A DNA stretch of 64,000 bases from Chitinophagaceae bacterium (GCA_004028765.1 SAIX01000038.1:6507-70506), one strand, 5' to 3'; positions 4,496 to 57,889 are shown, numbered from the stretch's first letter. Translations and numbers: made by a program. The notes: generated by a model not told the origin, from the sequence alone.

Positions 4496-4602
4496 AATTT
4501 GAAAATTGGTTAATTAGATAATTTGAAAATTTGGTAGTGAAAACTTGTGTGCCGCGACATTTGAAACATTCTCAAACTGTCACAGTTTCAAATTTTCAAA
4601 TT
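4496..4602. repeat. groES-groEL spacer with period-8 ATTTGAAA units and a 13-bp inverted repeat
   Basis: AATTTGAAAATTT (4520-4532) is the exact reverse complement of AAATTTTCAAATT (4590-4602). A further copy lies at 4496-4509. Confidence 0.75.
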
Positions 4603-4604
4603 GA

Positions 4605-4886
4605 TTAAACGATTGCGAGGATATCGCTTTCGCGCATGATCAGCAGGTCTTCGCCTTCAATCTGGATCTCCGTACCTGCATATTTACCATACAGAACGGT
4701 GTCACCAACTTTTACGGTTACCGGCTCATCTTTTTTGCCCGCTCCGGCAGCAACAATAGTGCCGCGTTGGGGTTTTTCTTTTGCAGTGTCAGGGATAATG
4801 ATTCCGCCTGCAGTTTTTTCTTCAGCAGCGGCAGGCTTAACAATTACTCTGTCGTGCAGAGGAGTAACGTTGAGTTTCTTTGCCAT
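4605..4886 (-). CDS. groES: Co-chaperonin GroES
   Basis: [36 protein letters not shown]. Confidence 0.99.
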
Positions 4887-5085
4887 ACGTTATGGTTTTT
4901 TGATTTTAAGACTAAAGTGCAACACTAACATCGAGAACCATGCCATGCACCACTTGCAGGTCAAATTTTCAGAACCGGGCTACGGGTGCATTCGTGGGTC
5001 TTACATACTGTCAGAAAGCGCACAAAGATGGGGAAGTTTTTGAAACGGCCGTGTCAATTTTTCAGGCCGGCTCCCAAAGCCTTGC

Positions 5086-5110
5086 AATCCCCTAGCAGGG
5101 CAATTCCGTA
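5086..5110 (+). promoter_or_regulatory. Putative ECF-sigma promoter AATCC-N16-CGTA for the TPR lipoprotein
   Basis: AATCC 5086-5090, 16-nt spacer, CGTA 5107-5110, 18 nt before the ATG. Same architecture at 10886-10910 and 10960-10984. Confidence 0.7.
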
Positions 5111-5128
5111 TATAGGCAAATGCATTGC

Positions 5129-6415
5129 ATGAAAACCCTGGTACCCCTTTTCGCTTTTCTTGTTTCTGTTTCTTCCTGCCGGCCACCGGCTCCGCTGGCC
5201 GACCCTGTTTTTACAGACAGCCTGTTATCCATTCGCGGACTTGTTCCGCAGGTAAAAAGCCTCGGAAAAGACAGCCTCTTCTGGACCGAACGCCTCGGGA
5301 AGAGCGGGGATGCTTTCACGGCTTCATCCCGGCTTGCAGGCCTGTTTGTACAAAAATTCCAGCTCCAAGGGGATATGCGGGATCTTTTGAAAGCCGATTC
5401 CATTTACAGTAAACTTATCACAGATTACAAAGGAATGGATGCAGGGATACTCAGGTCGATGGCATCTTTACAGATCACAAGGCACCGTTTCAGGCAGGCC
5501 GATTCACTGGTATTAAAATCGCTGGCTTTGGGCCAGGAAAAATATACCGGAACGCTGCTGGCATTTGATACCAAATTTGAACTGGGTGAATATATTCTTG
5601 CGGAACACTTGTTAAAAGAATGTGCCGCCACCAACGAGTATGGTTATTTTTTCCGGATGGGAAAATGGATGCATTATAAGGGCTTGTCTGACAGTGCAGC
5701 CTGGTACCTGCAAAAAGCTGCCGATTGGGCCGGTACCAGCCCCTCCCTAAAACAGGCTGCTTTTTCCAACCTGGCCGATCTGTACCTGCACGATGGCAAA
5801 ATGAAAGAAGCTGCCATATTGTATAAAAGGGTACTCTCGCAAAACCCGGTGGATTTCCACAGCCTGAGAGGCTGGGGAAGGATCGCTTTGCTGCATGACC
5901 AAAACCCGGGCCTGGCTCAAAAAATATTTGACCATACGGCTACGATCAATGGATTGCCCGATCCATGGTACGACAAAATATGGGTGGCCGAAGAAAAAAG
6001 CGATACGGTTCTCGCCCGCAAAACGGCAGAAATTTTTGTGCAGAAAGCCAGCGACCCTGTATATGGCGCCATGTACCATAAATATCTATTTGAGCTGTAT
6101 ACAGGTGTCCTGAACCGGCCGGAGCCTGCACTTTCCATCGCTTTATCAGAAGTAAAAGAACGGCCAACACCGCAAACCTATGCATGGCTTGTTTGGGCTT
6201 TGCATAAAAATGGGAAAGAAGCGGCAGCAAAGGAATTGTACGATGAAAAAGTATCCGGGAAACCCCTGGAAGCACTTGAATTATTCTGGATGGGCAAGTG
6301 GATGAAAGAAAATGGCCAGGGATACAACGCATCTGCTTTTTTTAAAGCAGCAGAGCGAAACCTGTATGATCTCTCTCCATGGAAACAACAGGAATTAAAA
6401 TCATTTCTGTTGTAA
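5129..6415 (+). CDS. TPR-repeat lipoprotein
   Basis: MKTLVPLFAFLVSVSS-C lipobox; helical repeats with TPR-like A/G/Y spacing (AAFSNLADLYLHDGKMKEAAILYKRVL). Start moved to 5129. Confidence 0.8.
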   Translation: MKTLVPLFAFLVSVSSCRPPAPLADPVFTDSLLSIRGLVPQVKSLGKDSLFWTERLGKSGDAFTASSRLAGLFVQKFQLQGDMRDLLKADSIYSKLITDYKGMDAGILRSMASLQITRHRFRQADSLVLKSLALGQEKYTGTLLAFDTKFELGEYILAEHLLKECAATNEYGYFFRMGKWMHYKGLSDSAAWYLQKAADWAGTSPSLKQAAFSNLADLYLHDGKMKEAAILYKRVLSQNPVDFHSLRGWGRIALLHDQNPGLAQKIFDHTATINGLPDPWYDKIWVAEEKSDTVLARKTAEIFVQKASDPVYGAMYHKYLFELYTGVLNRPEPALSIALSEVKERPTPQTYAWLVWALHKNGKEAAAKELYDEKVSGKPLEALELFWMGKWMKENGQGYNASAFFKAAERNLYDLSPWKQQELKSFLL

Positions 6416-6592
6416 TACCAGCCACAGTTTTCATGGCATCTTCGTTGCATCGCAAACAGTTCAGCCACATATTTTCATGGCGGCGGGGAAAAGTTTACAT
6501 TGTTTACCCGGAAAAGCCATTGATGATGGTATTTCCGTTGGAAAAGGATTGGAGCATGAGAGAGAGAGGCAGCAGTAACTTTTATTATTCAG

Positions 6593-55774: not shown

Positions 55775-55792
55775 GATTCATCCCCCTGAAAT

Positions 55793-55819
55793 AAAGCCCT
55801 GTTCACGCGGGGCTTTTTT
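55793..55819 (+). terminator. Terminator after the sigma factor gene
   Basis: AAAGCCCTG..CGGGGCTTT plus T-run. Confidence 0.7.
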
Positions 55820-55896
55820 GTACCCGCACATGAACAGCTATCCCCGCTGATAACTTTTAGCGTTTCTGCTTGTTAAGGCTTACATACATTTGCTTT

Positions 55897-56787
55897 ATGA
55901 GGATTGTCAGAACAATCATGGCAGCGGCAACTGGTGTTTTCTTGTTTTCCTGTGAGAAAACTATACAGGTACAACCCGAACAGCAGGCCCCCAAACTGGT
56001 GGTGGAAGCGCAGATAGAAGACGGGCAGCCGCCGATCGTTGTATTATCCAGTTCACTCAATTATTTCACAACCATCGATGCAGCTACACTCAACGGCTCG
56101 TATGTGCATGGTGCAAAAATCAGCATCAGCGACGGGCAAAAAACTGTTCCGCTCAAAGAATATACTGTGCCGCTGGCAGGTGGGTTCTTCTTTTATTATT
56201 ACAGCCCTTCGCAAAGCTCACCACTTACAACAATGATCGGTGCACAGGGAAAAAAATATGACCTGCGTATCGAAACGGGCAGCCAGGTATATACTTCTTC
56301 CACAACGATCCCGATGCTTACCAAACTGATCGATTCACTCTGGTGGAAACCGGCACCGGATAATCCCGATACTTCAAAAGCCGTTTTAATGGCAAGGGTA
56401 ACCGATCCGCCGGGTTATGGAAATTATATCCGGTATTTTACGAGCGTGAACGGCAATAACTTTTATCCTGGGCTAAACAGTGTGTATGACGATCAGATTG
56501 TTGACGGCACCACCTACGACATACAGATACAGCAGGGTGTTGCGCGTAATGAAAAAGTGGATTTTAAAGAATATGGTTATTTCAGGCGGGGAGATACCGT
56601 GATCGTAAAACAATGCAATATCGATAAAGCCACATACGATTTCTGGCGTACCTGGGAATTTACATACCAGTCAATCGGAAATCCTTTCTCAACACCGGGA
56701 AAAGTGATAGGCAATATCAGCAATAACGGGCTGGGCTCTTTCTGTGGCTACGCGGTTCAGTATAAACGCCTGATTATCCCCAAATAA
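55897..56787 (+). CDS. DUF4249-type lipoprotein
   Basis: Lipobox LFS-C-EK; PKLVVEA and GNISNNGLGSFCG family-like motifs. Start moved to 55897; TACATTTG 4 nt upstream. Confidence 0.75.
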   Translation: MRIVRTIMAAATGVFLFSCEKTIQVQPEQQAPKLVVEAQIEDGQPPIVVLSSSLNYFTTIDAATLNGSYVHGAKISISDGQKTVPLKEYTVPLAGGFFFYYYSPSQSSPLTTMIGAQGKKYDLRIETGSQVYTSSTTIPMLTKLIDSLWWKPAPDNPDTSKAVLMARVTDPPGYGNYIRYFTSVNGNNFYPGLNSVYDDQIVDGTTYDIQIQQGVARNEKVDFKEYGYFRRGDTVIVKQCNIDKATYDFWRTWEFTYQSIGNPFSTPGKVIGNISNNGLGSFCGYAVQYKRLIIPK

Positions 56788-56863
56788 TAAATGGTTGTGT
56801 AAAATCATTCCTCCCAAACTGCAAGGGAATGATATTTTTGTGCGTCTAAATCAGAAAGAAAGT

Positions 56864-57811
56864 ATGTCAGCAGAGGTTTCAGAAAAAGTACATGTATTGA
56901 TCATCGGTTCGGGTCCTGCAGGGTATACGGCCGCTATTTATGCAGCCAGGGCGAATATGAAACCCGTTTTATACCAGGGTATCCAGCCCGGCGGGCAATT
57001 AACAATAACAACCGAAGTAGAGAATTATCCAGGCTACCCGGAAGGCATACAGGGCCCTGAAATGATGGTGCATTTTGAAAAACAGGCCGCAAGGATGGGA
57101 GCGGATATCCGTTACGGGCTTGCGACAAAAGTGGATTTCAGCCAGCAGCCATACAAGGTTTGGATCGATGATGAGAAACTGATTGAGGCTGATGCAGTGA
57201 TTATCTGCACAGGCGCCTCTGCCAAATGGCTCGGATTGCCAAGTGAGCAGAAGCTGAATGGTTTTGGGGTAAGTGCCTGCGCAGTTTGTGATGGTTTCTT
57301 TTTCCGAGGGAAAGAAGTCGCGATCGTGGGAGCCGGTGATACTGCAGCGGAGGAAGCCTTATATCTTTCCAAACTCTGTACAACGGTTCACATGCTGATC
57401 CGGAAAGATAAAATGCGTGCCAGCAAAGTGATGCAGGATCGTGTGTTGCATGCACCCAACATCAAAGTGTACTGGAATACGGAGACAGAAGAAATACTGG
57501 GCGAACAGAAAGTGGAAGCCATGCGTATCCGCAATAACCAGACGAATGAAACACAGGAAATTCCCATCAGTGGTTTTTTTGTTGCGATAGGCCACCAACC
57601 CAATTCAGATATTTTCAAAGGCTGGATTGATATGGATGAAACCGGGTATATCCTTACACAACCCGGCACTTCTAAAACAAATGTGGAAGGGGTGTTTGCT
57701 GCAGGTGATGTGCAGGACAAAAATTACCGCCAGGCTGTAACTGCTGCCGGCAGTGGCTGTATGGCCGCACTTGATGCAGAAAGATATCTCAGTGCAAAAG
57801 GGATCGTGTGA
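56864..57811 (+). CDS. trxB: Thioredoxin-disulfide reductase
   Basis: IIGSGPAGYTAA, SACAVCDG, VGAGDTA, FAAGDVQD. Start moved to 56864; TATTTTTG at 56833-56840. Confidence 0.97.
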   Translation: MSAEVSEKVHVLIIGSGPAGYTAAIYAARANMKPVLYQGIQPGGQLTITTEVENYPGYPEGIQGPEMMVHFEKQAARMGADIRYGLATKVDFSQQPYKVWIDDEKLIEADAVIICTGASAKWLGLPSEQKLNGFGVSACAVCDGFFFRGKEVAIVGAGDTAAEEALYLSKLCTTVHMLIRKDKMRASKVMQDRVLHAPNIKVYWNTETEEILGEQKVEAMRIRNNQTNETQEIPISGFFVAIGHQPNSDIFKGWIDMDETGYILTQPGTSKTNVEGVFAAGDVQDKNYRQAVTAAGSGCMAALDAERYLSAKGIV

Positions 57812-57814
57812 TAT

Positions 57815-57889
57815 AGTTAAAAGTTAAGAGTCAGGAGTCTAGAGTAACGGACTCAACTTTTAACTTTTAACTTTTAACTTTTAACTTTT
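57815..57889. repeat. Two-armed heptamer array (AGTTAAA units / five perfect AACTTTT units)
   Basis: agttaaa-agttaag-agtcagg-agtctag-agtaacg, then (aactttt)x5 ending 2 nt before the folB ATG. The arms are complementary. Confidence 0.85.

Follow-up and report, generated by a model that had tools for sequence, protein, structure and literature searches.

Gene-less tandem-repeat arrays in the intergenic spacers of a Chitinophagaceae genome as probable relatives of the arms of four-helix-bundle gene cassettes

Two kinds of described element come closest to the repeats considered here. One is the intervening sequence (IVS) of 23S rRNA genes that carries an open reading frame (ORF), which in Coxiella forms a stem of 28 bp, with heptamers in tandem lying upstream of an ORF of the PF05635 family, RNase III cutting at mid-stem (PMC4990558). 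The other is the intergenic heptamer array, reported as GGGAATC in Xanthomonas and GGGGAYT in Nostoc (Rehm 2015, PMC4692102), as TAACTGA in Beggiatoaceae, Cyanobacteria and a few Bacteroidetes (MacGregor 2015, PMC4679880), and as an excess of heptanucleotide repeats among the long simple sequence repeats (LSSRs) of many bacterial genomes (Mrazek 2007, as cited in PMC4679880); the Xanthomonas arrays obey the same placement rule as those described below and are mostly transcribed (PMC4692102). Literature searches found no paper joining PF05635 genes to gene-less heptamer arrays. The stretch analysed here, hereafter the window, consists of 64,000 nucleotides from a Chitinophagaceae bacterium (C38:6507-70506 of a 3.7 Mb assembly in 140 contigs, genome label G000), and contains eight periodic arrays that had been picked out from its sequence alone in an original prediction and were all recovered, with agreeing positions and sequence, by Tandem Repeats Finder (TRF). 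By the names of homologues, the organism appears to stand near Sediminibacterium within the Chitinophagaceae. On balance, the reading favoured here is that these arrays are gene-less relatives of the inverted arms that bracket genes for IVS-like four-helix-bundle proteins, lying in transcribed spacers as a stem followed by an unstructured leader.

The PF05635 or "23S rRNA intervening-sequence protein" family comprises the cellular relatives of Avd, a protein of diversity-generating retroelements (DGRs). A profile search found no PF05635 gene in the window, as had been predicted, and 12 matches in the genome, all outside it. Each of the 12 genes is bracketed by an array and its reverse complement, so that the association of such repeats with four-helix-bundle genes, as originally put forward, holds at every locus of this genome. 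The arm unit differs at each of the 12, and at cassette C112, whose arms read GTGAATC GTGAATC GTCAATC GTCAATC ... (GACGATT)4(CACGATT)5, the order of variant units is mirrored too. The cassette proteins fall under TIGR02436 ("four helix bundle protein"). Their scores with the Avd model of DGRs are weak, and among PDB entries they match 2GSC and 2RLD, both deposited with five chains; PADLOC returned no match for them. Among 12 other genomes of the order, inverted arms were found at 40 of 49 PF05635 loci, applying a local score of at least 30, with a direct-repeat control that stayed at or below 25 except at two loci.

The tie is phylogenetic as well as physical. Protein distance is correlated with arm similarity (Mantel rho -0.24, p ≤5e-4), also when only pairs from different genomes are compared (rho -0.215, p ≤5e-4), and sister proteins carry related arm units such as GTGAATC and GTGAATG, with period-8 arms concentrated in one well-supported protein clade. 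The gene-less arrays, which outnumber cassettes by about 35 to 1, follow the same families: 63% of 279 gene-less heptamer arrays share their unit with resident cassette arms, compared with 0-35% when arm sets from other genomes are substituted. A cognate cassette unit exists in this genome for seven of the eight window arrays, the pairs being AATTTGAA with C87, AGTCAAA with C109, GGTTAAAGN with C107, AGTTAGG or AGTTAAA with C130, and AATTAAG with C66; the AATTACG/AATCCGC pair at 36936-37107 has no cognate among the 12.

The tie extends to whole genomes. Counted with the pattern (RRTBRRN)x4, which covers only part of the unit space, arrays give 216 hits in G000 and 0-2 in each of 16 congeners without a PF05635 gene. 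Among 151 Bacteroidia, the median number of hits is 0, 1, 9, 20 and 29 for genomes with 0, 1-2, 3-5, 6-9 and at least 10 such genes, respectively.

Several cassettes have settings or contents of their own. Genes G028b (L061, genome G028) and G022f (L072, genome G022) lie within long runs of direct repeats, (GGGCAAT)n and (GACAATT)n, in the same orientation on both sides, with direct scores of 363 and 170. At L074 (G023) and L085 (G026), armed cassettes lie directly between two tRNA genes, inside a stable-RNA precursor, a situation nearer to the rRNA IVS than to the operon sites. Spacers of the nuo operon, assigned by eye from the flanks, hold cassettes or gene-less hairpins repeatedly across genera, with differing arms and with proteins of different clades (C109:24500-24770 and 26931-27382 and C130:26600-27300 in G000; L059 in G021; L081 in G025). 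In 4/12 cassettes (C66:79842, C130:4791, C107 and C112) a motif (G)CGTATAAATACG(C) separates the left arm from the start of the gene, and GTATAAATAC beside the left arm was rejected as a general cassette end, being found in only 4/12. Candidate cargo of 0.7-2 kb between inverted arrays was likewise set aside, as it consisted of ordinary genes that happen to be flanked by arrays (ETF alpha, an FtsX-type permease, histidine ammonia-lyase, Gfo/Idh/MocA), and a search of 200-330 nt loops for a hidden small gene found none, their contents being nested arrays and modules resembling repetitive extragenic palindromic (REP) sequences.

The eight window arrays belong to a genome-wide population of about 400, and the window, whose array density equals the genome average, is no hot spot. 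When the whole assembly was shuffled three times in 300-bp blocks with dinucleotides preserved, period-7 arrays with a TRF score of at least 40 numbered 0, 1 and 0 versus 208 in the genome, well away from the chance expectation that was to be the test of the proposal; the corresponding counts are 68 versus 0-2 for period 8, 25 versus 1-3 for period 9 and 122 versus 15-24 for period 14. Arrays are mostly intergenic at period 7 (88% of 333) and period 8 (81% of 126), and mostly coding at periods 9, 12 and 15. The spacers that bear them, 9.9% of 2,940, have a median length of 166 nt versus 53 nt for other spacers, and the arrays themselves have a median length of 32 nt, usually with 3-6 copies and a peak at 4-5 units.

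About a dozen main unit families, with periods of 7, 8 and 9, make up this population. At period 7 these are AATTAAG (38 arrays), GGTGAAT (34), GGTGAGT (31), AGTTAGG (24), AGTTAAA (20), GTTCATG (11) and AGTCAAA (10); at period 8, GGTTTATT (33) and AATTTGAA (22); and at period 9, GGTTAAAAA (about 9). The purine/pyrimidine skeleton R-R-T-Y-R-R-R that had been proposed for the heptamers is above chance, fitting 42% of 290 intergenic heptamer arrays versus 22% when the letters of each unit are shuffled (maximum 83/290 in 300 shuffles), but it misses the GGTGAAT and GGTGAGT families. A looser form, R-R-T-B-A-N-N, accommodates 74% of heptamer arrays versus 28% of shuffled units, and position by position the consensus reads [A/G][G/A]T[T/G]A[A/G]N; a shared skeleton thus exists, and is looser than first thought. 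The idea of an element defined by periodicity rather than by sequence is only half right, as it leaves out the discrete unit families, the shared skeleton and a strict G/C handedness. Its description as a dispersed element fared better: a non-periodic mosaic, GTGA[AG]TGGGCA[AG]TGGTGA, is common to 62 loci and also occurs within the arms of cassette C65, indicating copying between loci and not independent slippage. Up to seven nested arrays of different families were seen inside the loop of an outer hairpin in the spacers at C65:79647-79846 and C56:140476-140838.

Handedness is strict in these arrays. Of 100 that lie no more than 20 nt upstream of a start codon, 81 have less G than C on the sense strand (G 7%, C 20%), and of 164 that lie no more than 20 nt downstream of a stop codon, 136 have more G than C. 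Gene-less hairpins with loops of at most 150 nt (n=75) begin with the G-containing arm in 67 cases and with the C-containing arm in 2 (p 8e-18), and cassettes are G-first in 31 cases and opposite in 5. Because an inverted repeat reads identically on both strands, this handedness is a property of the element itself, the G-containing strand running 5' to 3' toward the element centre, with the result that any transcript has a G-arm after the stop codon of one gene and a C-arm before the start codon of the next. Across 37 co-directional spacers, a median of 3 nt stays unpaired between stop codon and stem and a median of 14 nt between stem and start codon, the unpaired tail being longer than the head in 33 hairpins and shorter in 3 (p 6e-7), with a median minimum free energy (MFE) of -34 kcal/mol. 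Two-armed copies present a long AT-rich stem from about 3 nt past the stop, and then about 14 nt of G-poor single strand up to the start. This is not the form of an intrinsic terminator, in which a short GC-rich stem and a U-run close a transcription unit; the stems in question are long, AT-rich and placed inside the groES-groEL and trxB-folB operons.

Within the window, own gene calls and Pfam assignments (including groEL, groES, dnaE and msrA) place the arrays against or across start and stop codons and outside gene bodies, in agreement with the original prediction. The clearest hairpin separates trxB from folB on the plus strand. Its G-containing arm, AGTTAAA AGTTAAG AGTCAGG AGTC (57815-57839), starts 4 nt past the trxB stop codon (57809-57811), and is followed by an apical loop (57840-57849) and a C-containing arm of GACTC and (AACTTTT)x5 (57850-57889; TRF period 7 at 57855-57889, 5.0 perfect copies, score 70) that ends 2 nt before the folB ATG (57892). 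The fold of 57806-57897 has an energy of -29 kcal/mol and a z-score, taken like the others from comparison with shuffled sequences, of -4.5, none of 200 shuffles being equally stable. On the minus strand, the groES-groEL spacer contains a period-8 arm of AATTTGAA type on the mRNA strand (4568-4602), beginning 2 nt past the groES stop codon (4605-4607), a loop with a small internal stem (4534-4567), and a second period-8 arm, of TTCAAATT type on the mRNA strand (4496-4533), immediately upstream of the groEL start codon (4488), the unpaired outer part of which forms the leader; both arms were delimited by TRF, and 4486-4610 folds on the minus strand with z -3.3.

A second, inverted arm had been described at four arrays, and it is strong at these two. 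At the other two the arms pair, but the whole fold is not significant. In the divergent spacer between a SAM methyltransferase and an M14 peptidase gene, a G-containing period-9 arm of GGTTAAAGN (16647-16731, plus strand; TRF period 9/18 at 16666-16731), the unit type of the C107 cassette arms, is followed by a C-containing partner, CTTGATTTTTAACCCTTTCAACC (16775-16799, plus strand), which pairs with 16664-16680 in the MFE fold, and 16655-16800 gives an overall z of only -1.7. The G-containing arm of GGATTACG/AATTAGCG type at 36936-36980 (plus strand; TRF 36939-36979) overlaps the stop codon of an SBP_bac_5 gene (35280-36950) and pairs with 37085-37107, part of the C-containing arm CCGCTAATCCGCAATCCGG (37080-37107, plus strand; TRF 37088-37107), which, read from the msrA side (37117-37767, minus strand), is the G-containing arm that follows that gene's stop; this spacer is a convergent one, and 36930-37115 has z -1.4. 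Nested between these two arms is a separate module, the 40-nt octamer REP-like sequence ..CTCTGTGCCTCCGAGCCTCTGTGGTAAAAA (36986-37034, plus strand).

The four solo arrays, all of period 7, are unstructured, with MFE values from 0 to -4.7. A TTTTGAC/TTTGATT array at 15610-15638, its unit matching the arms of the C109 cassette, occupies the convergent spacer between an ORF (15148-15585, plus strand) and a methyltransferase gene (15671-16621, minus strand). An array reading CTAACTC/TTTAACT on the mRNA strand (31045-31079, minus strand; TRF 31045-31076) ends 5 nt upstream of the dnaE start codon (31039) and has an MFE of 0 kcal/mol. The AATTAAG array at 31959-32000 (plus strand; TRF 31959-31998, 5.7 copies) covers the stop codons of the convergent NlpC/P60 gene (31221-31964, plus strand) and an ORF at 31996-33525 (minus strand), and an array reading TTCTTAA/TTTTGAT on the mRNA strand (33531-33565, minus strand; TRF 33530-33548) fills, by a check of the reading frames, the 44-nt spacer from the stop of an M1 peptidase gene (33570) to the next start (33525). 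At the gathering threshold, a tRNA was the only Rfam match in the 64-kb window.

The history of the two operon sites was read from congeners and from metagenome relatives reached through FolB homologues, which are the informative genomes for trxB-folB because the synteny is lost in relatives at the level of the order. In seven of eight congeners (trxB DNA identity about 72-78%) the trxB-folB spacer is 0-30 nt long and holds no array, with overlapping stop and start codons in one or two. The eighth, G017, which has no four-helix-bundle genes, carries an unrelated GC-rich hairpin of ~100 nt, CGTCACCTTGAGCGAGCGAAGCGAGTCGAAAGG...CCTCGACTCGCTTCGCTCGCTCGGGATGACG (L043:195-290), which suggests that hairpins of more than one kind can insert, or are drawn to insert, at this junction. 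In four closer metagenome lineages (FolB 76-84% identical) a heptamer hairpin of AGTTAAA/AGTCAGG type is present, with a mosaic and a loop that differ each time, and all four are stable (z -3.9 to -6.5, 0/200 shuffles); periodicity is thus retained at orthologous sites, as had been anticipated, stem and period being kept while units and loops change. Two contigs with identical FolB, L124 and L125:1130-1160, show five differences, all at the apex of the trxB-folB hairpin, in otherwise identical aligned flanks; the apex is either a local mutation hot spot or a site of templated change.

The groES-groEL spacer, 25-45 nt in most congeners, has a C-arm upstream of groEL that the window shares with G017 and with L094, the most divergent metagenome relative, in both of which the 4496-4533 arm is kept as a solo array. 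The G-arm, missing in L094, and the loop, variable among close relatives, occur only in the window and in three closer contigs, so that one- and two-armed states exist at a single site. Taken together, these histories identify the arrays as derived insertions or expansions that are long-lived and turn over rapidly with pairing and period retained. The suggestion that the gene-less arrays are empty sites has support. At groES-groEL and trxB-folB, no relative examined has cargo between the arms; elsewhere, 12 cassette sites of relatives correspond to a clear orthologous junction in G000, and at six of these the genome has a hairpin or array devoid of a gene, versus 9.9% of all spacers (binomial p 5e-4). 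Two of those six are filled in congeners, G018 and G003, and the arm units here are unlike the relatives'.

Other repeats and enzymes of the genome were considered as possible agents. The 40-nt octamer module (...CTCTGCGGCTCTGCGGTGAAA; CTCTGYG... GGTGAAA) is a separate dispersed repeat that often adjoins heptad arrays in mosaics like bacterial interspersed mosaic elements (BIMEs), and inverted copies of it flank a PF13366 (GxxExxY/PDDEXK_3) gene at C100:22300-23100 (L132), one of two such genes. The only PF01797 (Y1 transposase) gene, on C3, has inverted repeats of its own that are unrelated to the heptad arrays. The only reverse transcriptase (RT; L135:1300-3354, C12) is a 684-aa retron-type enzyme fused to a HisKin-conflict domain, with RT-Protease_XI and RT-TIR_XII as its best PADLOC models, and is probably a defence system made up of one gene; the idea that the arms arose in a telomerase- or DGR-like manner finds no support in it and was rejected.

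The picture that would unite these observations is as follows. The eight arrays would be gene-less members of one modular tandem-repeat family with units of 7, 8 or 9 nt, sharing the kind of sequence, and for the most part the unit families, of the inverted arms around every PF05635/TIGR02436 gene of this genome, and they have enlarged intergenic spacers, operon-internal ones included, that are nearly empty in most congeners. In RNA, the stem may act as an RNase III-type processing site or as a structure protecting 3' ends, by analogy with the stem of the ORF-bearing 23S rRNA IVS. Bacteroidota initiate translation without reliance on Shine-Dalgarno pairing, and the unpaired tail of C, U and A could serve such a host as a structure-free translation leader. 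By the further analogy of REPIN hairpins with their RAYT genes, the arrays may arise and spread together with four-helix-bundle cassettes, solo arrays being one-armed precursors or remnants, and the four-helix-bundle protein may have a role in making or keeping them.

A number of points weigh against this picture. The gene boundaries depend on a crude gene caller of our own (3,080 genes, 89.6% coding). The correlation of array load with the number of four-helix-bundle genes (rho 0.84 in 31 relatives, 0.60 in the 151 Bacteroidia) is uncorrected for phylogeny and genome size, and 4 of 30 Bacteroidia without a PF05635 gene have at least 5 pattern hits (among these G149 with 118, G072 with 54 and G057 with 29), which shows that arrays can exist without the gene. 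The 33 GGTTTATT arrays and the approximately 10 AATCCGC arrays have no cognate gene in the 140-contig assembly. Near-identical full copies are lacking, the most frequent 21-mers occurring at most 8 times, and no two hairpins share a loop, so that nothing points to recent bursts. As the Y1 transposase has unrelated repeats, the PF13366 gene lies between copies of the octamer module and the RT is of retron type, no enzyme is tied to the heptad arrays, and the four-helix-bundle proteins themselves have no catalytic motif. Finally, the solo C-arm at groEL seems, from its distribution among relatives, to be older than the hairpin, a sequence of events that would fit local growth as well as decay.

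Several of these points are what would be expected under the main rival account, in which the arrays are host spacer elements in their own right and not relatives of cassette arms: G-poor leaders free of structure, and stems or terminators past the stop codon, that grew locally through slippage and the templating of one arm by the other, and into which cassettes insert as into landing pads. Genomes with arrays and no gene, a groEL C-arm that predates the hairpin and is present in the gene-less G017, unique loops, the unstructured solo arrays, the strong polarity relative to genes and the location of cassettes G028b and G022f within long direct arrays all agree with this account. It nevertheless seems rather unlikely, since arm sequence and period track the protein tree across genomes and at different sites, congeners without the gene are nearly free of arrays despite the same translation system, and local slippage does not explain 21-nt mosaics at up to 62 loci. 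Those mosaics also count against a neutral origin, in which slippage favouring 7-nt units would let LSSRs accumulate under weak selection; the heptanucleotide excess attributed to many bacteria (Mrazek 2007, as cited in PMC4679880) and the variable copy number between arms and lineages are in its favour, yet a handedness of 67:2, arm complementarity that survives complete unit turnover, arrays placed inside tight operon spacers and the near-absence of arrays from congeners of similar base composition make it very improbable, and it is disfavoured.

Mobility might instead be conferred by another enzyme, such as the Y1 transposase or the PF13366 nucleases, acting on non-autonomous hairpins like REPINs or MITEs (miniature inverted-repeat transposable elements), with the cassette genes as passengers. 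The one PF01797 and two PF13366 genes of G000, the octamer modules that flank a PF13366 gene and often adjoin heptad arrays, and the nesting of arrays in the loops of other arrays lend themselves to such a scheme. The Y1 repeats are unrelated, however, the PF13366 gene has octamer modules and no heptad arrays at its flanks, identical elements in high copy are missing and the unit families match four-helix-bundle arms, all of which make it a poor prospect. A role as G-quadruplexes or other non-B DNA, which has been suggested for GGGAATC arrays in Xanthomonas and Nostoc, would draw on the same placement and polarity rules, the preference for about four units and the many inverted pairs (PMC4692102), and is scarcely credible here: most units (AGTTAAA, AATTAAG, AATTTGAA) contain no G-run, so four G-tracts are unavailable and the reading does not apply.

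A more specific partnership is conceivable, though doubtful: each Avd-like pentameric four-helix-bundle protein might read its own heptad units, each lineage maintaining or spreading its cognate array family. If this were true, the result would be a RAYT/REPIN-type system built on a non-enzymatic helical pentamer, and the covariation of arms and proteins, the preference for about 4-5 units, the shared skeleton and the bacterial excess of 7-nt repeats would be explained together; the G-first handedness, which puts the 3' ends of C-rich strands on the outside of the element, would in that case mirror the way in which arms are deposited at both ends of a cassette. Whatever the fate of this idea, two old puzzles, the function of PF05635 and the excess of heptanucleotide repeats between bacterial genes, are joined here physically and statistically. 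The strict handedness, together with the order of stop codon, stem, about 14 nt of G-poor leader and start codon, makes concrete predictions on RNA processing and translation. There is also a practical side, as the arrays inflate spacers and break assemblies, and annotation would mis-score them as terminators or miss them.

No new class of element is described here. Because gene-less heptamer arrays are already in print for other phyla, the increment lies in the quantitative link to four-helix-bundle genes and in the polarity rule, to which come the matching of arrays with cognate cassettes, the dose-response across genomes and another, second set of sites found both filled and empty. Like the published heptamer arrays and LSSRs, the arrays of this genome are tandem repeats with units inside the 5-11 nt range, above chance frequency, intergenic, within tens of nucleotides of ORF ends and of about four copies, with the G-strand after a stop, the C-strand before a start and frequent inverted pairs (75 short-loop hairpins here). 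Unlike the subclass treated by Rehm, with its four G-tracts able to form a G-quadruplex, the arrays here lack GGG runs in their dominant units (AATTAAG, AGTTAAA, GGTGAAT and AATTTGAA), about a dozen families with periods of 7, 8 and 9 coexist, and a four-helix-bundle link is absent from those papers. MITEs have terminal inverted repeats with a target-site duplication and derive from an autonomous insertion sequence; no transposase-bearing parent was seen here, and there are no identical copies (21-mers ≤8).

REP/REPIN-RAYT systems and BIMEs are alike in being dispersed intergenic hairpin doublets with an associated gene flanked by cognate repeats, in having a repeat family that follows the gene subfamily and in forming mosaics with other modules; a dependence of repeat abundance on the gene may be a further likeness, to judge by the uncorrected rho values of 0.84 and 0.60 and in spite of the arrays in 4 of 30 gene-less genomes. 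They differ in that the protein encoded by the flanked gene here is small, helical and not known to act as a nuclease or transposase, the repeats have an internal period and diverge fast, and the Y1 (RAYT) gene is not flanked by heptad repeats, the single PF01797 gene on C3 having unrelated ones. The ORF-bearing IVS of Coxiella burnetii and Leptospira (S23p/PF05635) differs from the window elements in its position, in helix 25 or 45 of 23S rRNA, the eight window sites lying between protein-coding genes, and in its ORF, the window elements having no PF05635 ORF and half of them being single arms without a stem. The long terminal stem of the IVS has its counterpart at 57806-57897 (z -4.5) and 4486-4610 (z -3.3), with two weak pairs and four single-armed arrays besides. 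Tandem heptamers of strain-variable copy number stand beside the ORF of the IVS, and the cassettes of this genome likewise place the same protein family in the loop of a long inverted-repeat stem.

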